A stretch of 23,452 nt of DNA from a virus (taxonomy: Duplodnaviria; Heunggongvirae; Uroviricota; Caudoviricetes), in the IMG/VR virus record IMGVR_UViG_2609460346_000013; one strand, 5' to 3'. Below are positions 3,238 to 22,549 of the stretch, one piece after another. The notes under the pieces are model-generated. The model was not told where the DNA came from and searched no databases. It saw only the letters and a list, made by a program, of their open reading frames with translations. The number at the start of each line of letters is the position of its first letter. The stretch's first letter is position 1. The translations under genes and the position numbers were made by a program.

Positions 3238-3509
3238 GTATTCGTATTGAAATTGGCGAACGTTATGTCGTTACCAGTGACAGCTTTCAGTTTATTCTCC
3301 ACGAGAAAAAGAGAGCGGAAAGCGGTAAAAACGCCGGTCAGGAATGGCTGGCGGTGGTTGGTTATTACCCGAAATTAAGCCAGCTCGTTTCCGGCCTGAT
3401 GCATCACGATATTCTGACCGGAAGCGCAAAGTCTTTTGCTGATTTAAACGGGCAGGTTGAGCAACTCAGCAAGCGTTGTTCAGAGGCTTTTGGCTCATAT
3501 GGCCGTTAA
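3234..3509 (+). CDS. Hypothetical early protein (91 aa)
   Basis: ATGA overlap with the preceding gene. Its 3' end overlaps the A start by 11 nt. Confidence 0.55.
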   Translation: MSIRIEIGERYVVTSDSFQFILHEKKRAESGKNAGQEWLAVVGYYPKLSQLVSGLMHHDILTGSAKSFADLNGQVEQLSKRCSEAFGSYGR

Positions 3510-5778
3510 AGCCTCCGGGCGTTTTGTCCCTCCGTCAGCATTTGCCGCAGGCACCGGTAAGACGTTTACCGGTGCTTATGCATGGAACGCGCCACGCGAG
3601 GCCGTCGGGCGCGAAAGACCCCTTACACGTGACGAGATGCGTCAGGTGCAAGGTGTTTTATCCACGATTAACCGCCTGCCTTACTTTTTGCGTTCGCTGT
3701 TTACTTCACGCTATGACTACATCCGGCGCAATAAAAGCCCGGTGCACGGGTTTTATTTCCTCACATCCACTTTTCAGCGTCGTTTATGGCCGCGCATTGA
3801 GCGCGTGAATCAGCGCCATGAAATGAACACCGACGCGTCGTTACTGTTTCTGGCAGAGCGTGACCACTATGCGCGCCTGCCGGGAATGAATGACAAGGAG
3901 CTGAAAAAATTTGCCGCCCGTATCTCATCGCAGCTTTTCATGATGTATGAGGAACTCTGCGATGCCTGGGTGGATGCCCATGGCGAAAAAGAATCGCTGT
4001 TTACGGATGAGGCGCAGGCTCACCTGTATGGTCATGTTGCTGGCGCTGCACGTGCTTTCAATATTTCCCCGCTCTACTGGAAAAAATACCGTAAAGGACA
4101 GATGACCACGAGGCAGGCATATTCTGCCATTGCCCGCCTGTTTAACGATGAGTGGTGGACTCATCAGCTTAAAGGCCAGCGTATGCGCTGGCATGAGGCG
4201 TTACTGATTGCTGTCGGGGAGGTCAATAAAGACCGTTCTCCTTATGCCAGTAAACATGCCATTCGTGATGTGCGTGCACGCCGCCAGGCAAATCTGGAAT
4301 TTCTTAAATCGTGTGACCTTGAAAACAGGGAAACCGGCGAGCGCATCGACCTTATCAGTAAGGTGATGGGCAGTATTTCTAATCCTGAAATTCGCCGGAT
4401 GGAGCTGATGAACACCATTGCCGGTATTGAGCGTTACGCCGCAGCAGAGGGTGATGTGGGGATGTTTATCACGCTGACCGCGCCGTCAAAGTATCACCCG
4501 ACACGTCAGGTCGGAAAAGGCGAAAGTAAAACCGTCCAGCTAAATCACGGCTGGAACGATGAGGCATTTAATCCAAAGGATGCGCAGCGTTATCTCTGCC
4601 ATATCTGGAGCCTGATGCGCACGGCATTCAAGGATAATGATTTACAGGTCTACGGTTTGCGTGTCGTCGAGCCACACCACGACGGAACGCCGCACTGGCA
4701 TATGATGCTTTTTTGTAATCCACGCCAGCGTAACCAGATTATTGAAATCATGCGTCGCTATGCGCTCAAAGAGGATGGCGACGAAAGAGGAGCCGCGCGA
4801 AACCGTTTTCAGGCAAAACACCTTAACCGGGGCGGTGCTGCGGGATATATCGCGAAATACATCTCAAAAAACATCGACGGCTATGCACTGGATGGTCAGC
4901 TCGATAATGATACCGGTAGGCCGCTGAAAGACACAGCTGCGGCTGTTACCGCATGGGCGTCAACGTGGCGCATTCCGCAATTTAAAACGGTTGGTCTGCC
5001 GACAATGGGGGCTTACCGTGAACTACGCAAATTGCCTCGCGGCGTCAGCATTGCTGATGAGTTTGACGAGCGCGTCGAGGCTGCACGCGCCGCTGCAGAC
5101 AGTGGTGATTTTGCGTTGTATATCAGCGCGCAGGGCGGGGCAAATGTCCCGCGCGATTGTCAGACTGTCAGGGTCGCCCGTAGCCCGTCGGATGACGTTA
5201 ACGAGTACGAGGAAGAAGTCGAGAGAGTGGTCGGCATTTACGCGCCGCATCTCGGCGCGCGTCATATTCATATCACCAGAACGACGGACTGGCGCATTGT
5301 TCCGAAAGTGCCGGTCGTTGAGCCTTTGACTTTAAAAAGCGGCATCGCCGCGCCTCGGAGTCCTGTCAATAACTGTGGAAAGCTCACCGGTGGTGATACT
5401 TCGTTACCGGCTCCCACACCTTCTGAGCACGCCGCAGCAGTGCTTAATCTGGTTGATGACGGTGTTATTGAATGGAATGACCAGGAGGTCGTGAGGGCGC
5501 TCAGGGGCGCATTAAAACGAGGTCTGAGAAGACCAAACCGTCAGCAAAGAAACGGAAGCCCGTTAAAACAGCATGAAATGGCACCATCGGCCAGACTGAC
5601 CCGGTCAGAACGAATGCAAATTACCCGTATCCGCGTTGACCTTGCTCAGAACGGTATCAGGCCGCAGCGATGGGAGCTTGAGGCGCTGGCGCGTGGAGCA
5701 ATTGTAAATTACGACGGGAAAAAATTCACGTATCCAGTCGCTGATGAGTGGCGGGGATTCTCAGCAGTAATGGAGTGA
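3499..5778 (+). CDS. A: Replication initiation endonuclease A (rolling-circle initiator; 759 aa from MAVKASGRF)
   Basis: Large ORF with an HUH-type metal-binding motif (PHWHMMLF). N-terminus matches recalled P2 gpA. The longer ORF from 3457 is an upstream extension. Confidence 0.9.
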   Translation: MAVKASGRFVPPSAFAAGTGKTFTGAYAWNAPREAVGRERPLTRDEMRQVQGVLSTINRLPYFLRSLFTSRYDYIRRNKSPVHGFYFLTSTFQRRLWPRIERVNQRHEMNTDASLLFLAERDHYARLPGMNDKELKKFAARISSQLFMMYEELCDAWVDAHGEKESLFTDEAQAHLYGHVAGAARAFNISPLYWKKYRKGQMTTRQAYSAIARLFNDEWWTHQLKGQRMRWHEALLIAVGEVNKDRSPYASKHAIRDVRARRQANLEFLKSCDLENRETGERIDLISKVMGSISNPEIRRMELMNTIAGIERYAAAEGDVGMFITLTAPSKYHPTRQVGKGESKTVQLNHGWNDEAFNPKDAQRYLCHIWSLMRTAFKDNDLQVYGLRVVEPHHDGTPHWHMMLFCNPRQRNQIIEIMRRYALKEDGDERGAARNRFQAKHLNRGGAAGYIAKYISKNIDGYALDGQLDNDTGRPLKDTAAAVTAWASTWRIPQFKTVGLPTMGAYRELRKLPRGVSIADEFDERVEAARAAADSGDFALYISAQGGANVPRDCQTVRVARSPSDDVNEYEEEVERVVGIYAPHLGARHIHITRTTDWRIVPKVPVVEPLTLKSGIAAPRSPVNNCGKLTGGDTSLPAPTPSEHAAAVLNLVDDGVIEWNDQEVVRALRGALKRGLRRPNRQQRNGSPLKQHEMAPSARLTRSERMQITRIRVDLAQNGIRPQRWELEALARGAIVNYDGKKFTYPVADEWRGFSAVME

Positions 5779-6107
5779 ACGTCGCCAGTTGCGAAAATTA
5801 TTTACAGGGGGCAGCGTTAAGCATCTAAAGATCTTGTTCTATGATTAGAATGTTTCCTCGTTGCACTCTCGTATAGTTATTTAATGGGAAGATGTACTCT
5901 ATATGTTGTGTTTTGGTGATAAATGAAGCCAAAGGAAGGAGATTTTGCTTGATTGATGGGCGCTCTTTGCTATACACCTTGTATTGAGAAGGAGAAGTAA
6001 TCAAGGATTAAGCTGGCTTTTGTCAAAAATCTGAAAAGCTTTTTTGACTGAATACGATAGCGAGTTGTACTATTTGCGCCCTCAAAAGTAACCGGCGGCT
6101 GGGTAAA

Positions 6108-6482
6108 ATGGGGAAGCAAGGCAAAGGCAAAGGCAACAAAAATCAGGTTAAGGTTACGTGGGCTCAGGCGTGGCGGGATGTAATGATAAGAGCCATGTCT
6201 AATGGTCAGTTGATACCTATTACCATCAGTATTATTTTAATGATTGCTGCATGGAGGTTACCAAAAACAGACTTGTCCAATTTAGCCTTCTCTATTGTTG
6301 ATGGCTTTAAGGAGCATTCCTTGGTTGGTTGGGCTATCTCGGTAATAGTGGGTTTGGCTTGGTCTGCACATGCGCGAATCATGAGGCGCTGTTTTAGTTC
6401 CGAGGCACAGAGAATCGGTAACGAGAAAACAAAGTATCAACAAAGACAGACCACTCAAGCCTTGGGTACAAGTGATAAATAG
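6108..6482 (+). CDS. Small membrane protein with two predicted transmembrane helices (124 aa; start uncertain)
   Basis: Hydrophobic segments LIPITISIILMIAAW and LVGWAISVIVGLAW. Lies in the cargo island between A and cos. No recognised domain. Confidence 0.5.
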   Translation: MGKQGKGKGNKNQVKVTWAQAWRDVMIRAMSNGQLIPITISIILMIAAWRLPKTDLSNLAFSIVDGFKEHSLVGWAISVIVGLAWSAHARIMRRCFSSEAQRIGNEKTKYQQRQTTQALGTSDK

Positions 6483-6502: not shown

Positions 6503-7060
6503 ATGCTGACAGTGCTGTTTTATGTGCTGTTGGGTTTAGGCGCAGCACACTTCATTTACGAGCGAATCATTTTGCCGTCCATCCGACTTCATTATAGAAA
6601 CCAATTGTTTGCGCTTCGTGATGTCGCTAGGAGGAAAATCATTGATGGAGGTTCCGATACTTCCATGCAAGCGGCAACACTTGTGCATGACTCATTGAAT
6701 AACGCTATCAATAGATTGCATTTACTCACGTTGCCAAACAAATTTCGTGCTCAAAAGCGTATGGCAGAAAACCATGCAATAAGGCAGAAAATTCGGCGTG
6801 AGATAGATGTTTTCAAACGCTGTGATGATAGAGAAGTTGTTGATGTACTGTTTAAATCCGGTCGGATACTTGAAAATGTACTGTTATTCAATAGCTTAAT
6901 GTTATTGCTTTACATGTTTCCATTTGTCCTTGCTGTATGGTTCTGTGTTAGGGTCATAAAGACAGCAAGTAGTTTAGTACAGTGGGTCAAAGGAAGAGAT
7001 TTAGAGGAAGCTATAATGCTGCTTCCTGATACTCAGGTTGAAAAGGTTGTATACGCATAA
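6503..7060 (+). CDS. Membrane protein with N- and C-terminal transmembrane helices (185 aa)
   Basis: AGGAG ribosome-binding site 6 nt upstream. Hydrophobic N-terminus (LTVLFYVLLGLGAAHFIY) and C-terminal helix (LLLYMFPFVLAVWFCVRVI). Followed directly by an intrinsic terminator. Confidence 0.6.
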   Translation: MLTVLFYVLLGLGAAHFIYERIILPSIRLHYRNQLFALRDVARRKIIDGGSDTSMQAATLVHDSLNNAINRLHLLTLPNKFRAQKRMAENHAIRQKIRREIDVFKRCDDREVVDVLFKSGRILENVLLFNSLMLLLYMFPFVLAVWFCVRVIKTASSLVQWVKGRDLEEAIMLLPDTQVEKVVYA

Positions 7061-7299: not shown

Positions 7300-8247
7300 A
7301 TGAAGATATTTATTAGTTGGTCAGGTCAGGACAGCCTGGAGATAGCAAAAGTATTACGGGATTGGATACCGAATGTTATTCAAGTAGCTGAGCCGTACGT
7401 ATCAGCGGAAGATATTGATAAAGGCACTCGCTGGGCGACTGATATATCAAAGGAACTTGATGACTCTTCTTATGGGATTATTTGCCTTACAAAAAATAAT
7501 ATTAATGCACCGTGGATAAATTTTGAGGCGGGGGCTTTAGGTAAAAAGGTTGATAAGAGCCGGGTTAGTCCTTTCTTGTTTAAAATTAAACCATCTGAGA
7601 TAACAGGCCCAATATTACAATTCCAGTATACTCGTTCGGATGATAAGAACGATATTTTGAAGTTGATGTTGTCAATAAATAATCAAGCAGGATTTTTGAC
7701 TGAAGAACGCTTAACTAAAGCTTTCGAGCAATGGTGGCCAAGTTTAGAGCGTGAGTTAGATAACATTCAAGATATTAACCCTGTAGATAAAGATTCCACT
7801 AAAAAAACAAAAGGTGATTCGACTTCTGAGATACAAAATCTTTCCAAAATTGTTGAAAGTTTGCTGGATATTAGCCGAACAAATCACCAATTATTGCGTG
7901 ATCCAGCATCATTATTGCCAGAAGAATATGTTAGCAAAATAATAAACAGGGAAGGGCGTAAAGAAACTGTTTTAAAAATTGTAGCTTCTGATTTATTATC
8001 CATGCATCATTCACTAATTCGTGTAAAAAGAAGATTTATTCGTCGTGGTATTGATGAAACATCTAGGAGCGAGTTAATTGAATCATTAAATAAAATGATA
8101 ATGGATTGTTCTAGAGTAATCGCTCACTTAGATAATTATTGTGGGGCTTCATCAAACAATATGTTCAATAGTGCGCTTAGATTGCGGACCAGAAATTTAA
8201 TTGACATGATGGATGAGGAGGATGCAGAACGGGATGAAATGGAATAA
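7300..8247 (+). CDS. TIR-like domain protein with an uncharacterised C-terminal helical domain (315 aa)
   Basis: N-terminus MKIFISWSGQDS matches the TIR first-strand signature. Downstream ICLTKNNINAPWINFEAGAL fits the TIR W-x-x-E block that carries the catalytic glutamate. About 170 C-terminal residues have no recognised motif. Visibly AT-rich. Confidence 0.7.
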   Translation: MKIFISWSGQDSLEIAKVLRDWIPNVIQVAEPYVSAEDIDKGTRWATDISKELDDSSYGIICLTKNNINAPWINFEAGALGKKVDKSRVSPFLFKIKPSEITGPILQFQYTRSDDKNDILKLMLSINNQAGFLTEERLTKAFEQWWPSLERELDNIQDINPVDKDSTKKTKGDSTSEIQNLSKIVESLLDISRTNHQLLRDPASLLPEEYVSKIINREGRKETVLKIVASDLLSMHHSLIRVKRRFIRRGIDETSRSELIESLNKMIMDCSRVIAHLDNYCGASSNNMFNSALRLRTRNLIDMMDEEDAERDEME

Positions 8248-8791
8248 TCAATTTTGACTAATCATAAATAATTTTGCATATATAAACTTATAATGCCGCA
8301 GCCGCTATTTTTCAGCGGCTGTATATCGCTTATAATGGGTATGTTATTTTTATTTTGATAAAATCATTAAAATTGTCGATGTTATATGAATGCACATGTA
8401 TTATTAATGTTAGAAGATTATGCCTGCTTACGGCTATTGTGCTGAATTCAACTATGAACGCATCAGTATTAAAATCGTTCCATGAAATGTTCTTCGTCTA
8501 CAGCAGATGATGGGCAACGAAAAAATGACGCTGAGTGAGTTGGTCGGGGAGAATTGTTAGAGGTATTTATGGAGTGGTTTAATAATATCGGTCAATCCTG
8601 AGTTGCAGCATCACATAGACGATAGGGAATCTCTCCAGTCGTTCTGGAATGGCAGCGTTGAACAACAAGCACAGCGAGGCGTTAGATGCCCATCAGATTG
8701 ACACAGAGGGTTTATGAATCGCTGGGATTTACTTAGTTTGAAAAATAATATATTTATATGTTTTTGTATTGTGTTTGTTAAGGAGTTTGGA

Positions 8792-8998
8792 TTGAAAAGA
8801 AAACTGATTTGTGTTATGGCTTTTTGGGGGGCGTTGCTGGCTGGTTGTAATGAGAGTAATAAAAAAGAAGTTGAGGGTTGTATTGAAAGAGGTGTCCAAT
8901 ATTTTATAGAGATTGGTTCTTACCCTAAATTAAGTGATGGGCGTGATGCTGTAAAAGTTGCTACTGAACGTTGTAATAGAACAATAACGGCTTTCTGA
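8792..8998 (+). CDS. Small lipoprotein (about 68 aa from a TTG start; the ORF track's longer frame starts at 8714)
   Basis: AGGAG at 8781..8785 sits 6 nt before the TTG at 8792. Signal peptide with lipobox (KRKLICVMAFWGALLAGC). Stop is 2 nt before the next ATG. Confidence 0.5.
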   Translation: MKRKLICVMAFWGALLAGCNESNKKEVEGCIERGVQYFIEIGSYPKLSDGRDAVKVATERCNRTITAF

Positions 8999-9000
8999 TA

Positions 9001-9918
9001 ATGGATTATACGAGCTATATAATAGGACAGCTTCAGGTTGAGGATATTATTGATGCAATTAAAGGCGTTAATAATACTAATGTCATAAAAGATTATGTGC
9101 TGCCTGTAGTATTACCAATTATATCTTCTGTGCTGAGTTACTTTATTGCAACTAGGTTGTTTTATCGGCAGGAGTACCTTAAAGCACAAAGAAGAAAGGT
9201 AAGCGTTGTAAATAAATGTATTTATGACTACTTTTCTGCAATGACAACGTTGTTGCAAATTAAAGGGAATTATTATGGTGGGGTAAGTATAAGTGAAAAT
9301 CCTATCGAGAGGGCTTTAGCTTTTCCTGTTGTGGTTTTTTCTGGTGCTCCTCTATCATCAGATTTAAGTGAGTTGGCCTGTATATTGAGTCAAAAGGGAG
9401 TAGGGAATAATAGAGAGCCAGCAAAGACTACTAACTGGGGGGATGCTTTTGCTGTTAGTGATATAGCAAGAAGGTTTAACAGCCTATTGGCTGCATTAAA
9501 TGTTAGGAATGATTTTGATGACACCTATAGAGGAATGATTATTGAATCAACAGGTTCACCTTTGCCTACGATGCGTTTTAAAAATGATGATATTGTTAAT
9601 GCTATAGGTAGTAATAAGGCAGCTTATTACATTGATATTACTGAGCAAATAATGATTATGATAGATGTTTTGTTGCTTGATATTAATCTGTTGCTCAAAG
9701 AGTTGCCATTGTATGCTGAATCGCTGTTTGACAAAAGAGTAATGCAAGAAGATTCAGGGATTCTTAAATTCAATGATTTGCACGAACGTTTTCCTCTACT
9801 TATGAAACCTGTAACGCCACCTTCGATTAAACTCATGTCTGATTATTTGGGGTACAGTGAAGATGAGATCTTACGACGCTATCCATACCCGTTCTTTAAT
9901 ATGCATGATTGTGAATGA
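9001..9918 (+). CDS. Membrane-anchored hypothetical protein (305 aa, one N-proximal transmembrane helix)
   Basis: Hydrophobic segment VLPVVLPIISSVLSYFIATRLF. Tightly coupled to the upstream lipoprotein gene. AT-rich. No recognised domain. Confidence 0.6.
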   Translation: MDYTSYIIGQLQVEDIIDAIKGVNNTNVIKDYVLPVVLPIISSVLSYFIATRLFYRQEYLKAQRRKVSVVNKCIYDYFSAMTTLLQIKGNYYGGVSISENPIERALAFPVVVFSGAPLSSDLSELACILSQKGVGNNREPAKTTNWGDAFAVSDIARRFNSLLAALNVRNDFDDTYRGMIIESTGSPLPTMRFKNDDIVNAIGSNKAAYYIDITEQIMIMIDVLLLDINLLLKELPLYAESLFDKRVMQEDSGILKFNDLHERFPLLMKPVTPPSIKLMSDYLGYSEDEILRRYPYPFFNMHDCE

Positions 9919-10022
9919 ATGTGCATATGTCAGAAGCCGTTTTTATTGTCAGTTATCGTCAGTGCTGGCGCGCTCTTGGAGTGTTCATGCAACTGCATTA
10001 AAACCGCCCCACGAAGCGGGCG

Positions 10023-10041
10023 GGCGAGGCGGGGAAAGCAC
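10023..10041. other. Putative cos cohesive-end sequence GGCGAGGCGGGGAAAGCAC
   Basis: The 19-mer matches the P2 cohesive-end sequence as I recall it. It lies in a GC-rich non-coding stretch just beyond the portal gene terminator, as in P2. Confidence 0.55.
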
Positions 10042-10198: not shown

Positions 10199-11233
10199 TC
10201 AGCCGTTGTCAGTGTCCAGTGAGTAGTTTTTAAAGCGGATGACCTCCTGACCGAGCCAGCCGTTTATTTCCCGAATCCTGTCCTGTAACGGGATAAGTTC
10301 ATTGCGGACAAAGACCTTTGCCACTTTCTCAATATCGCCCAGCGACCCGACGTTTTCCGGCTTGCCACCCATCAACTGAAAGGGGATGCGGTGCGCGTCC
10401 AGCAGGTCAGCGGCGCTGGCTTTTTTGATATTAAAAAAATCGTCCTTCGTGGCCACTTCACTGAGCGGGATAATTTTAATGCCGTCGGCTTTTCCCTGTG
10501 GGGCATAGAGAAACAGGTTTTTAAAGTTATTGCGGCCTTTCGACTTCACCATGTTTTCGCGGAGCATTTCGATATCGTTGCGATCCTGCACGGCATCAGT
10601 GACGTACATGATGTATCCGGCATGTGCGCCGTTTTCGTAATACTTGCGGCGGAACAGCGTGGCCGACTCATTCAGCCAGGCAGAGTTAAGGGCGCTGAGA
10701 TATTCCGGCAGACCGTACAGCTCCTGATTAATATCCGGCTCCAGCAGGTGAAACACGGAGCCGGGCGCGAAAGGTGTCGGCTCGTTGAAGGACGGCACCC
10801 ACCAGTAAACATCCTCCTCCACGCCACGGCGGGGATATTTTGCCGGTGAGGTTTCCAGTCTGATGACCTTACCGGTGGTGCTGTAACGCTTTTCCAGAAA
10901 CGCATTACCGAATACCAGAAAATCCAGCACAAAGCGGCTGAAATCCTGCTGAGAAAGCCACGGGTGTGGGATAAACGTTGAGGCCAGAATGTTACGTTTG
11001 ACGTAAATCGGTGAGCTGTGATGCACGGCAGCACGCAGGCTTTTTGCCAGACCGGTAAAGCTGACTGGTGGCTCATACCATCTGCCGTTACTGATGCACT
11101 CGACGTAATCCAGAATGTCACGGCGGTCGAGTACCGGCACCGGCTCACCAAAGGTGAATGCCTCCATTTTCGGGGCGCTGGCGGTCATTTTTTTTGCCGC
11201 AGGTTGCGGTGTTTTCCCTTTTTTCTTGCTCAT
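10199..11233 (-). CDS. Q: Portal protein, P2 gpQ-like (344 aa)
   Basis: Length identical to recalled P2 gpQ, with the lysine-rich MSKKKGKTPQPAAK N-terminus. Lies next to cos and is divergent from the lysis and tail genes. Confidence 0.9.
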   Translation of the reverse strand: MSKKKGKTPQPAAKKMTASAPKMEAFTFGEPVPVLDRRDILDYVECISNGRWYEPPVSFTGLAKSLRAAVHHSSPIYVKRNILASTFIPHPWLSQQDFSRFVLDFLVFGNAFLEKRYSTTGKVIRLETSPAKYPRRGVEEDVYWWVPSFNEPTPFAPGSVFHLLEPDINQELYGLPEYLSALNSAWLNESATLFRRKYYENGAHAGYIMYVTDAVQDRNDIEMLRENMVKSKGRNNFKNLFLYAPQGKADGIKIIPLSEVATKDDFFNIKKASAADLLDAHRIPFQLMGGKPENVGSLGDIEKVAKVFVRNELIPLQDRIREINGWLGQEVIRFKNYSLDTDNG

Positions 11234-11740
11234 CAGTAAAACTCCAGAATGGTGGATGTCAGCGGGGTGCTGATACCGGCGGTGAGTGGCTCATTTAACA
11301 GGGCGTGCATGGTCGCCCAGGCGAGGTCGGCGTGGCTGGCTTCCTCGCTACGGCTGGCCTCATAGGTGGCGCTGCGTCCGCTGCTGGTCATGGTCTTGCG
11401 GATAGCCATGAACGAGCTGGTGATGTCGGTGGCGCTGACGTCATATTCCAGACAGCCACGGCGGATGACGTCTTTTGCCTTGAGCACCATTGCGGTTTTC
11501 ATTTCCGGCGTGTAGCGGATATCGCGTGCGGCGGGATAGAACGAGCGCACGAGCTGGAACACGCCGACACCGAGGCCGGTGGCATCAATTCCGATGTATT
11601 CGACGTTGTATTTTTCGGTGAGTTTGCGGATGGATTCCGCCTGAGTGGCAAAGTCCATGCCTTTCCACTGGTGACGCTCAAGTATTCTGAATTTACCTCC
11701 GGCCACCACCGGCGGTGCCAGCACCACGCATCCGGCGCTG
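11233..11740 (-). pseudogene. P: Terminase ATPase subunit P, C-terminal fragment only (about 165 codons; N-terminal part deleted)
   Basis: The reading frame stops overlapping the Q start as in P2, but only about 165 codons remain instead of about 590. The upstream end abuts a truncated K on the opposite strand. Confidence 0.75.
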
Positions 11741-14060: not shown

Positions 14061-14090
14061 TTTTATCCAGACAGAGGCTGATGCGCAATT

Positions 14091-14125
14091 AAACATTGAG
14101 CGGCCATGCTGGTCGCTCAATGTTT
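14091..14125. terminator. Hairpin between convergent S and the antisense cargo gene (12-bp perfect inverted repeat AAACATTGAGCG / CGCTCAATGTTT); probable bidirectional terminator
   Basis: Inverted repeat read directly, with an 11-nt loop. On the minus strand it is followed by a U-rich stretch (UUUAAUU). No clean U-run on the plus strand. Confidence 0.5.
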
Positions 14126-14131
14126 AGAGGT

Positions 14132-14917
14132 TTATGAGTGATTTTTATTTGATGCTTTGTATTCTAAAACCTTCTTATTGGCGTAAAAGAATTTTGTATA
14201 TGACAGGAATATAACCAGACCTGAAGTGAAATAGACGAGGGATAGTATTAATAATGCTTTTTTGCGACTGTTATTATCTTTAATCTCCAGGCTTAACCAT
14301 TCGGAGTCCTCCTCGTTTAGCTGTAAGAGCTTATTGCAGGCGATTTCAGGAAGTGTGTCTTTTATAAATACGTTTTGCAGTCTCTTGCAATCGGCAAGGC
14401 TATAAGTTTTATTAAATTCAACTGCTTTATTTTTGAAGGATAAAAGAACTTTGTCACTATAAACATAGTACATCATGTTTTTATATGGTATGCCTATGGC
14501 ATCCCTTACTATAACGGATTGTTCGTTGTGTATGTAACATGCGAGGAGAATGTAAAAAATACTGGCCAGAATTACAATTATTGTTTTAATTATGTGTGGT
14601 GGTTTTGTTATGTCACCCCAGATGCGAGTAAGGAAAAAATACGATGTTTTTAGTTTTCCATCAATCAGTCCCTGCTGTATCATTCTCACATTTTCAATGC
14701 CTGATACATTGATTCCGTTAATTATTTTAAATAGTTGAATGTCGCGCCACTCGCGGTCAAGTCTTTTTAATTTTTTGTCTGAATATCCAAAATTGAAATA
14801 ATGTGCAATAAGCCTCATAAGGTTACTTTTACCAAAGCTAAAAAATGCTAATACTGCAAAGCTACAAAGGAAAAAAACGATTAGCCCCCACACATTAGTC
14901 ACATTATAGCTGACCAT
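14132..14917 (-). CDS. Multi-pass membrane protein, cargo gene antisense to the tail operon (261 aa)
   Basis: Strong AAGGAGA ribosome-binding site on the minus strand 8 nt before the ATG at 14917. Hydrophobic helices at the N-terminus, middle and C-terminus. Very AT-rich. Occupies the position of the antisense orf30 between S and V in P2. Confidence 0.7.
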   Translation of the reverse strand: MVSYNVTNVWGLIVFFLCSFAVLAFFSFGKSNLMRLIAHYFNFGYSDKKLKRLDREWRDIQLFKIINGINVSGIENVRMIQQGLIDGKLKTSYFFLTRIWGDITKPPHIIKTIIVILASIFYILLACYIHNEQSVIVRDAIGIPYKNMMYYVYSDKVLLSFKNKAVEFNKTYSLADCKRLQNVFIKDTLPEIACNKLLQLNEEDSEWLSLEIKDNNSRKKALLILSLVYFTSGLVIFLSYTKFFYANKKVLEYKASNKNHS

Positions 14918-15000
14918 TACGCTCTCCTTGAATGTTGTCTGGTAGTTCTACAAATGAATCCAGATAGCATAACTTTTATATATTGTGCAATCTCACATGC

Positions 15001-20224: not shown

Positions 20225-20818
20225 ATGTTTACTAAGCGACGATTAAAAAATATTAACTGGGAGGCAAGTTCAGTGATTCTTGCTATGGTTCTCTTTGTTG
20301 GAAATATATTTTATACAAATCATCGTGATGATATAAGCATGGAGGCTGAGAGGGACAGTATCAGAACAATGTTTGCATATGAAATCGCTAATAACCATCG
20401 CGCTCTCACTTTTCTTGATAAAACGAGACATATTGGCTTTGACGAAAATTCGGAGCATTTTGTTGGCGAGCCTTTTGCCATTAATGTCAAATCATTAGGG
20501 GGACCTCGCTTACAGATTGCATTAAACCAGACTGATAAAGTGTTTAAATCCTACTTCGGCGAATTAAGTAAGCTTGATAAAGAGGATGTTACTCTTCTTA
20601 TGGACTATTACCATGAGCAAAGCATCCTGCTGGAGCGTGTAAAATCTACGTTACAGAAGATGAAAAGTGGTAATGATATTAAAGTTGATATTGATGGTTG
20701 CTTATTAGAAGAACACTTCATGAATGAGCTTAATCTTTCTAATATTTTGCTTAAACGCTATAGCTATTTATTATCACAACACGCTAAGGAACATAAAACA
20801 AAAGATTTACATAATTGA
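20225..20818 (+). CDS. N-terminally membrane-anchored hypothetical protein (197 aa), cargo gene at the P2 Z/fun position
   Basis: AAGGTG ribosome-binding site. One N-terminal hydrophobic helix (SSVILAMVLFVGNIFY), then a soluble domain with no recognised motif. AT-rich. Confidence 0.6.
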   Translation: MFTKRRLKNINWEASSVILAMVLFVGNIFYTNHRDDISMEAERDSIRTMFAYEIANNHRALTFLDKTRHIGFDENSEHFVGEPFAINVKSLGGPRLQIALNQTDKVFKSYFGELSKLDKEDVTLLMDYYHEQSILLERVKSTLQKMKSGNDIKVDIDGCLLEEHFMNELNLSNILLKRYSYLLSQHAKEHKTKDLHN

Positions 20819-22350: not shown

Positions 22351-22441
22351 TGGTCGATGTGGACGCTATGTGGACAGCGTTTGATATAAATCCATTTATA
22401 TCATCAGGTTAGGTGCTTTTTTGTGACACCATCCCTGTCTT

Positions 22442-22468
22442 CCCCCACATGATGTGGGGGTTTTTTTT
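22442..22468 (+). terminator. Rho-independent terminator, probably host-derived
   Basis: CCCCCACA/TGTGGGGG stem followed by eight T. Confidence 0.7.
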
Positions 22469-22549
22469 ATCCTCAATTTGCCTGCTGCTTAATGCATTGC
22501 AGATGATTTGCTTCCGTTATACTACCGTCAGTTGATAGCGGGAGTATTT

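Follow-up and report, generated by a model that had tools for sequence, protein, structure and literature searches.

The interval between gpA and gpQ (old/tin) in the genomes of P2-like phages is an experimentally established anti-phage hotspot (PMC9122126; PMC9519451), for which 1,650 gene arrangements have been listed and which also holds cargo without a role in defense, namely partition systems and cytolethal distending toxin (PMC9122126). It ranks among the richest sources of new anti-phage systems. One of these systems, Rst_2TM_1TM_TIR, came to light in phage P2_AC1 (Rousset et al. 2022, PMC9122126), and a clone of its three genes reproduces the protection of P2_AC1 lysogens against lambda and LF82_P8 (PMC9122126). 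In this article, we describe a pair of adjacent genes in the hotspot of a 23,452-nt stretch of DNA from a tailed phage (IMG/VR record IMGVR_UViG_2609460346_000013; "the window" refers to this whole stretch), which is a defective P2-like prophage of E. coli. The first gene encodes a small lipoprotein and the second a 305-aa single-pass membrane protein, the family of which we refer to as fam305. The two genes are not part of Rst_2TM_1TM_TIR but constitute a self-contained, horizontally shuffled two-gene cassette, which is a reasonable candidate for a new phage-exclusion module.

Mobile elements are known to protect their carrier cells from incoming DNA by means of small lipoproteins, such as Llp of T5, Cor of phi80 and N15, and TraT of the F plasmid, and on the F plasmid the gene for the outer-membrane lipoprotein TraT adjoins the gene for an inner-membrane protein, TraS. 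Among the inner-membrane exclusion proteins of prophages, SieA of P22 blocks DNA injection by related phages only and exists in several very divergent sequence types (PMC10883804).

The three genes upstream of the cassette (6108-6482, 6503-7060 and 7300-8247, encoding proteins of 124, 185 and 315 aa) match the PADLOC models 2TM-TIR, 1TM-TIR and TIR-TM with E-values of 2.2e-58, 2.7e-75 and 2.3e-118, respectively, and by these matches are one known validated system, Rst_2TM_1TM_TIR; the hotspot of the window is 99.6% identical to that of P2_AC1. A first-pass annotation of the window, made from the sequence alone, correctly located the pair in an island of cargo genes but counted it as the third unit of that island; with the three upstream genes recognized as a single system, the pair is the second module. 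The primers of pFD240, the validated clone, map to window positions 5843 and 8633, and because the clone ends 159 bp before the start of the lipoprotein gene, the published construct excludes the pair. In Table S5 of PMC9122126, the five genes appear as "hypothetical + ... + TIR_2 + hypothetical + hypothetical". PADLOC contains no family that matches either protein of the pair at E<=1, which leaves neither of them recognizable as a component of the TIR system, and hhalign pairs the 305-aa family with the 1TM protein at a probability of 1.5% and with the TIR protein at 0.3%. The TIR gene and the pair are separated by a 545-bp spacer that holds a fossil of the gpA 3' end. Moreover, the pair occurs without TIR genes in Escherichia albertii and enterotoxigenic E. 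coli (ETEC), in strain MS 16-3 and on the metagenomic contig L039, hence the association with the TIR system is not obligate.

In P2-like phages the two genes are adjacent and in constant order, the lipoprotein gene being first, in four different arrangements of the hotspot: downstream of the TIR system (in the window, in 14 complete E. coli genomes and in AC1), between a DUF3850 gene plus a hypothetical gene on one side and a gene for a 333-aa hypothetical protein on the other (MS 16-3 and L043), alone between gpA and the portal gene (E. albertii NBRC 107761 and four porcine ETEC), and in front of a gene for a 433-aa protein (L039). The pair exists in three sequence versions, among which the lipoprotein is 59-78% and the membrane protein 54-79% identical, and the divergence of the two genes is parallel, with dN/dS ratios of 0.15-0.30 for the lipoprotein and 0.12-0.23 for the 305-aa protein. 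Because such ratios (0.12-0.30) reflect purifying selection, both open reading frames are real, functional genes, and the sequence comparison indicates that they are inherited as a unit in P2-like phages. As a separate observation, the 433-aa protein of L039 (1808-3109) weakly matches Pfam MauJ (E 3.6e-6) and DzbB, a PADLOC component of the Dazbog system (E 2e-4).

The first gene product was classed as a lipoprotein by its N-terminus, for which the criteria were a positive charge in the n-region, a hydrophobic h-region 7-22 residues long and a lipobox of the form [LVI][ASTVI][GAS]C, the cysteine being about 15-35 residues from the start. The N-terminus of the protein (MKRKLICVMAFWGALLAGC) has all of these features of a signal peptidase II substrate: it can be parsed into the positive n-region MKRK, the segment LICVMAFWGAL and the lipobox L-A-G-C19, with a hydrophobic core of 12 residues, and the lipobox is kept in eight of the ten aligned homologues. 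The lipobox, the TTG start codon and the AGGAG site in front of it, all of them pointed out in the first-pass annotation, are thus in place (AAGGAG, with the lipobox cysteine at residue 19). The mature protein of ~49 aa has two invariant cysteines (C30 and C61) and an invariant C-terminal ERCNRT(T/I)TAF, and the product is a predicted small exported lipoprotein whose mature domain is probably disulfide-bonded. It matches phrog_32041 (E 9.5e-38), a family annotated as "unknown function". The residue at position +2 after the lipobox cysteine is Asn in the window allele and Asp in two of the three enterobacterial versions, those of E. albertii and L039 (C-D-N and C-D-D). Asp at this position is the inner-membrane retention signal of E. 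coli lipoproteins, and to judge from this residue the membrane of residence may differ between versions of the protein.

The start of the lipoprotein gene requires some comment. The PGAP/RefSeq annotation of strain D7 places it at ATG 8714, which yields a product of 94 aa. The TTG codon at 8792 is nevertheless the supported start on comparative grounds. Marinobacter and metagenomic homologues have lengths of 66-81 aa, with signal peptides that begin at the position of TTG 8792, the 97.5% identical allele of L043 and strain MS 16-3 has an ATG exactly where the window has its TTG, and ATG 8714 is located inside the gpA fossil. PGAP itself uses the 68-aa form for the MS 16-3-type allele and for ETEC1730 (loci L040 and L089). 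The evidence for the fossil is a local alignment of the segment 8714-8763 with the gpA end and adjoining spacer of ETEC1730, which has a score of 19; in 500 dinucleotide shuffles the mean score was 11.3 and the maximum 17, and none of the 500 reached 19. On the strength of this alignment, the segment is homologous to the last gpA codons and the spacer of phages that carry the pair directly after gpA, therefore the upstream ATG belongs to the fossil, and the fossil can be taken as the left boundary of the mobile cassette. The proposal of a TTG start in the first-pass annotation is accordingly backed by the homologues.

The signal-peptide codons contain a run of G residues that differs among alleles. 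Six residues (G6) correspond to the intact frame; the G5 form found in phage P2_AC1 and in the IMG/VR prophages L041 and L042 shifts the frame of the lipoprotein, and it is because of this shift at 8826-8831 that the gene is unannotated in P2_AC1. G7 was seen on one contig, and the MS 16-3-type allele has a T7G4 tract instead. The frameshifted products P0006 and P0007 are present on 124 contigs and 1 contig, respectively, and the intact product P0003 on 297 contigs. Phase variation by slippage in this run is disfavored, given that all three G5 alleles inspected have the single nucleotide polymorphism 9418A in common; from the shared polymorphism, the G5 alleles are probably one inherited lesion or lineage and not the outcome of repeated slippage.

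The gene for the 305-aa protein starts at ATG 9001, two nucleotides past the stop codon of the lipoprotein gene, and no Shine-Dalgarno sequence of its own could be read upstream of this ATG. Because of the 2-nt gap and the missing ribosome-binding site, translation of the second gene is probably coupled to that of the first, which fits the tight joining of the two genes that the first-pass annotation described. At the boundary of the two genes, RNA folding revealed nothing (z -0.68), and a scan of the AT-rich spacer for promoters found 9 sites where 6.8 were expected, which is not above the shuffle expectation.

The membrane-spanning helix of the 305-aa protein (VLPVVLPIISSVLSYFIATRLF) is preceded by a net-acidic N-terminal helix of ~30 residues and followed by the basic segment RQEYLKAQRRK. 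A similar charge bias exists in the family as a whole: in 104 of 130 fam305 members the C-terminal flank of the membrane helix is richer in Lys and Arg, and the mean net charge across the 130 members is +1.0 for the C-terminal flank versus -0.4 for the N-terminal one. From the positive-inside rule, we predict an N-out/C-in orientation, where the helical bundle that follows the membrane helix would be cytoplasmic and the conserved N-terminal helix of ~25-30 residues periplasmic. The one N-proximal membrane helix and the large soluble domain reported in the first-pass annotation were both found, but the domain is most likely cytoplasmic rather than exposed at the surface, which weakens the idea that the protein masks surface receptors.

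The 305-aa protein matches phrog_21267, also of "unknown function", with E 1.8e-149 over residues 9-300 (profile positions 1-291 of 291). An AlphaFold2 model built from an alignment of 51 sequences has a pLDDT of 88.2 and a pTM of 0.80 (an earlier model, based on only 3 aligned sequences, had a pLDDT of 53 and was unusable). The model is an all-helical elongated bundle of ~250 aa, in which one very long helix (residues 28-95) holds the membrane span and packs with helices 149-184 and 204-242, and short helices make up the C-terminus. Y32 and P35, where the membrane helix begins, are invariant or nearly so, as are N71, L84, K88, Y91, P101, R104, R169, E215 and D222 in the bundle. Searches of Pfam, NCBIfam and PADLOC gave no match for either protein of the pair, and none for the 51 aligned fam305 members apart from one chance-level hit (E 0.004). 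Sequence searches of the PDB with both family profiles gave no match, fold searches with the 305-aa model returned generic helical bundles only, and full-text literature searches yielded no paper describing these two proteins. Remote homology and structure prediction, which the first-pass annotation had proposed, have thus provided a confident helical model but no known family, and its statement that no function can be assigned from sequence stands. Two candidate assignments were rejected. Residues 276-293 fit the spacing of a C-terminal helix-turn-helix (HTH), but the recognition helix would be acidic (SEDEI; family consensus SEEEI) and no HTH model matches; and a sensor domain of the 4HB_MCP type, which would call for a Pfam 4HB_MCP match or strong structural similarity, together with periplasmic placement between two transmembrane helices, does not fit. 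The features of the cassette and its boundaries are collected in Table 1.

Table 1. Positions of the two genes, their signals and the flanking landmarks in the window
Feature	Position	Strand	Basis and remarks
Shine-Dalgarno sequence AAGGAG	8780..8785	+	Read from sequence; 6-nt spacer to TTG start 8792
Lipoprotein precursor gene, 68 aa	8792..8998	+	ORF and translation; TTG start, TGA stop 8996-8998
Type II (lipoprotein) signal peptide MKRKLICVMAFWGALLAGC	8792..8848	+	Lipobox L-A-G-C at 8837-8848; read from sequence
G6 run within signal-peptide codons	8826..8831	+	Alignment and tract counts
305-aa single-pass membrane protein gene (fam305)	9001..9918	+	ORF; phrog_21267; AlphaFold2 model
Predicted transmembrane helix, residues 33-54 VLPVVLPIISSVLSYFIATRLF	9097..9162	+	Hydropathy and charge bias
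gpA 3'-end fossil and downstream spacer	8714..8763	+	Local alignment with ETEC1730 gpA end and spacer
P2-type cos cohesive-end sequence GGCGAGGCGGGGAAAGCAC	10023..10041		Right boundary of hotspot; outside cassette

The two families have largely separate distributions. The lipoprotein family, characterized by the motif C-x2-RG-x2-YF-x-EIGSYP and a C-terminal ERCNRTTTAF, has members in 28 species-representative genomes, among them those of Marinobacter, Nitrosospira, Sphingomonas, Janthinobacterium, Idiomarina and Gemmatimonadota. Its neighborhoods are variable, several being mobile or defense-like and several lying outside recognizable mobile elements. A fam305 gene accompanies it at a single one of the 28 loci, that of E. 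albertii, and is missing from the other 27, which rejects an obligate operon of the two genes across bacteria; among ~46 fam305 loci, the lipoprotein family was found only at the enterobacterial P2-like ones. For fam305 itself, an exhaustive profile search detected at least 198 cluster representatives (50% identity) at E<=1e-3, of which 115 reach E<=1e-10; most are full-length proteins with 280-300 aa. The family is visible only in this type of search, a word-index protein search finding just 2-4 relatives. Loci were retrieved with the lipoprotein alignment and with a sub-alignment of 10 fam305 sequences, as the 51-sequence alignment was too divergent for this purpose.

Members of fam305 reside in a variety of mobile contexts. 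They are situated between lambda-type tail genes I and J (L080/81 and L069/82), at the head-tail junction of another group of lambdoid phages (L072-78), beside an autotransporter gene in another P2-like hotspot (L066), and next to integrases (L033 and L046); one member (P0020) follows hsdS of a type I restriction locus. In a marine metagenome (L054 1124-5433), the fam305 gene is located between a gene for an OLD/GajA/AriA-like AAA_15 ATPase of 589 aa and a match to the PADLOC candidate PDC-S42 (E 1.7e-42), and by its gene content this locus looks like a defense island. Another member, P0056, is at least 90% identical across Salmonella, Klebsiella, Serratia, Pectobacterium, Enterobacter, Pantoea, Providencia and E. 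coli, and it is the first gene after a 649-aa DUF6538-type integrase (L083-L088, 5699-11905) in an integrative island that occupies two or more chromosomal sites. Downstream of P0056 there are a small gene and a GNAT acetyltransferase gene, possibly a toxin-antitoxin pair, followed by DUF6119 and DUF4468. Among 130 proteins encoded next to fam305 genes, Pfam identifies phage integrases (5), GpJ (3), KAP NTPases (2), transposases and phage structural proteins, and on account of these recurrent neighbors we regard fam305 as mobile accessory cargo. Each protein of the pair is a member of its own uncharacterized family of mobile, usually solitary genes. In the lambdoid loci, a gene for an unrelated lipoprotein of 144-160 aa is found between K and I, near the fam305 gene (L080/L081 4884-6918; L069/L082 4806-6909), which makes it a second, non-homologous case of a lipoprotein gene close to a fam305 gene.

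Both products of the cassette are envelope-targeted, both genes are conserved mobile prophage cargo, and the locus they share is largely devoted to conflict between phages. The interpretation that we tentatively favor, and that we consider possible rather than probable, is exclusion of other phages by the prophage at the level of the cell envelope; a role in defense we infer from location alone. Given a cytoplasmic helical bundle and a periplasmic N-terminal helix, as predicted, the periplasmic face of the inner membrane is the only place where the two products could come together, and it is this restricted meeting place, together with the targeting of both products to the envelope and the Asp at +2 in two of the three lipoprotein versions, that makes us prefer exclusion at the envelope. 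With its periplasmic helix and membrane span, the 305-aa protein would obstruct or sense the DNA-delivery apparatus of the incoming phage at the inner membrane. The lipoprotein would be either a periplasmic partner that the P2-like phages have acquired or a second, independent exclusion factor in these phages. The specificity of exclusion would be narrow, as is the case for P22 SieA.

Several observations weigh against envelope exclusion. The P2_AC1 lysogens are protected only against lambda and LF82_P8, with no additional phenotype against T4, P1, 186, CLB_P2, AL505_P2 and T7 (PMC9122126). This is weak evidence with respect to an intact pair because the lipoprotein allele of AC1 is frameshifted, and a host range as narrow as that of SieA would explain the lack of a phenotype on a small phage panel. 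About 30% of the contigs with this lipoprotein allele group carry a frameshift, from which it follows that the lipoprotein is dispensable in nature. The families are unlinked outside enterobacterial P2-like phages, so the pair may amount to two independent genes that are inherited together, and many fam305 homologues sit alone between housekeeping genes. There is no homology link to any defense or exclusion protein in PADLOC-DB v2, Pfam or NCBIfam, and the generic bundles returned by the fold searches provide none. Lastly, a cytoplasmic location is predicted for the largest and best-conserved portion of the 305-aa protein, and this location is not an obvious match for a pure block of DNA entry.

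The conserved cytoplasmic bundle would fit abortive infection, where the bundle senses a phage product, the transmembrane helix oligomerizes, the membrane depolarizes and the cell dies, with the lipoprotein unrelated or modulating the response. Single-gene membrane-anchored Abi proteins are common, fam305 genes are overwhelmingly solitary on mobile elements and one of them is part of a clear defense island, and the conserved polar residues N71, K88, Y91, R104, R169, E215 and D222 are all in the predicted cytoplasmic bundle. We still regard this mode of action as unlikely: the protein is not similar to any Abi or defense model, a single transmembrane helix is a weak pore former, and the attachment of the lipoprotein in four P2 hotspot contexts would be left unexplained. 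The pair could also be kept for the benefit of the host, as envelope proteins that modify its physiology upon lysogenic conversion (stress tolerance, serum or bile resistance like that conferred by lambda Bor, adhesion or colonization). Such a role would be in keeping with the envelope location of both products, with the partition systems and cytolethal distending toxin carried in the same hotspot, with the fam305 homologue beside an autotransporter (L066) and the several homologues among housekeeping genes, and with the presence of the lipoprotein family in many free-living Proteobacteria, at several loci outside any recognizable mobile element. We judge it improbable, however, as neither protein resembles a known virulence or stress family and the strong link of fam305 to phages, integrases, and restriction or defense genes is more typical of conflict systems.

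Two further explanations would tie the pair to functions already encoded in the prophage. Of the 15 complete E. coli genomes with this version of the pair, 14 have it next to the TIR system, as does AC1, and the pair might for this reason be taken for a fourth and fifth component that tune or extend the TIR defense. This is highly improbable and largely refuted by the results described above: the three-gene clone ending at 8633 suffices for the lysogen phenotype, the pair is found elsewhere with entirely different neighbors or alone, the spacer with the gpA fossil stands between it and the TIR gene, and hhalign shows no relationship to the 1TM or TIR proteins. Two adjacent phage genes for a small lipoprotein and a helical, single-pass membrane protein also superficially recall a two-component spanin of the Rz/Rz1 type, in which a protein of the inner membrane and a lipoprotein of the outer membrane together span the periplasm in lysis. 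That the pair is a second spanin seems barely conceivable to us, and we reject membership in the class (Rz/Rz1, P2 LysB/LysC) on topology, location and gene order. P2-like phages already encode LysB and LysC in their lysis cassette, and the pair is located in the cargo hotspot and not in that cassette; the gene order is reversed, with the lipoprotein first, whereas the gene for an o-spanin is embedded in that for the i-spanin, overlaps it or lies downstream; the predicted N-out/C-in orientation (104 of 130 members) puts the helical domain in the cytoplasm, whereas an i-spanin is N-in/C-out with a periplasmic coiled coil; with 305 aa, the membrane protein has roughly double the length of an i-spanin; linkage of the two families is rare; and the lipoprotein is a folded, Cys-paired domain, unlike the typical o-spanin, which is short and proline-rich.

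Returning to exclusion at the envelope, a broader version of it is that fam305 is a widespread, previously undescribed family of single-gene factors directed against phages or other mobile elements (at least 198 clusters, distributed over P2-like and lambdoid prophages, satellite-like islands and integrative elements of Gammaproteobacteria), which would act at the inner membrane by coupling the periplasmic N-terminal helix to the cytoplasmic bundle and for which the P2-like phages of Escherichia would have recruited a Cys-paired lipoprotein as periplasmic partner. We consider this generalization rather doubtful; if true, it would represent an exclusion device working in two membrane compartments, without a known counterpart. 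The locus is already catalogued, and it is the protein families that lack a description in the sources searched. Since uncharacterized gene sets are very common in this hotspot, the pair would be a sensible candidate and not a surprise. It is nonetheless above an average pair of hypothetical genes in the size and mobility of fam305, its confident but unmatched fold, the linkage of the two genes in four contexts, and the fact that the published experiment bypassed it: the cassette lies inside a published, validated locus and yet outside the clone, and the phage that was examined (AC1) carries a broken lipoprotein allele. If the pair does exclude phages, it would provide a new envelope-acting family and a function for ~200 clusters that have no Pfam, NCBIfam or PADLOC annotation and, in PHROGs, match nothing but families of unknown function. 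If it does not, the boundaries of Rst_2TM_1TM_TIR become sharper and the recurrent misannotation of the lipoprotein start (94 versus 68 aa) is corrected.

With respect to the wider genomic context, the window and the P2-like prophage that adjoins cpxP in E. coli D7 are collinear (int, C, cox, gpA, hotspot, portal, terminase), and the pair is located in a low-GC interval between gpA (3457-5778) and the cos site and portal gene (10023-10041 and 10199-11233). The motif GGCGAGGCGGGGAAAGCAC we take to be the P2 cos sequence; window position 10022 corresponds to the end of the linear P2_AC1 record. Relative to the intact D7 prophage, the window lacks 5.3 kb (L001 15054-20368; junction at 11737-11740), a deletion that takes most of the terminase ATPase, the scaffold, capsid, small terminase, head-completion, X and holin genes, and part of the endolysin gene. 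The defective prophage still holds its hotspot cargo. A low-GC (35-37%) insertion of ~940 bp between tail genes S and V (14063-15000), absent from D7, contains a 261-aa ORF on the minus strand (14132-14917) and may be a further cargo site; a low-GC ORF of 197 aa (20225-20818) follows the tail-fiber genes at the second P2 hotspot (Z/fun). Neither ORF has a match in Pfam, NCBIfam or PADLOC. The 47 bp at 22425-22471 exactly repeat a sequence that directly flanks the D7 prophage on its integrase side (L001 3139-3185) and probably represent the att core at the distal end of the prophage; because only ~2.2 kb separate this repeat from the 197-aa ORF, the tail genes from the sheath gene to D appear to be deleted too.

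Among the known systems closest to the 305-aa protein are the four-helix-bundle sensor domains (Tar/Tsr, PcaY, McpS, TorS and PilJ) and DUF3829. The lipoprotein, for its part, is set apart from TraT, Llp and Cor in that it has no Pfam match to them and its family is also found in many environmental Proteobacteria outside obvious mobile elements. Rst_2TM_1TM_TIR of P2_AC1 and the other cargo of the P2 gpA-gpQ hotspot share their locus with the pair, which differs from the TIR system in having no PADLOC match, in lying outside the validated clone, and in moving independently of the TIR genes. The 305-aa protein has no detected sequence or fold similarity to P22 SieA and has a large conserved domain that is predicted to be cytoplasmic, and the likeness between the two is one of analogy: SieA and other prophage inner-membrane exclusion proteins are, like the 305-aa protein, accessory inner-membrane proteins encoded by prophages.

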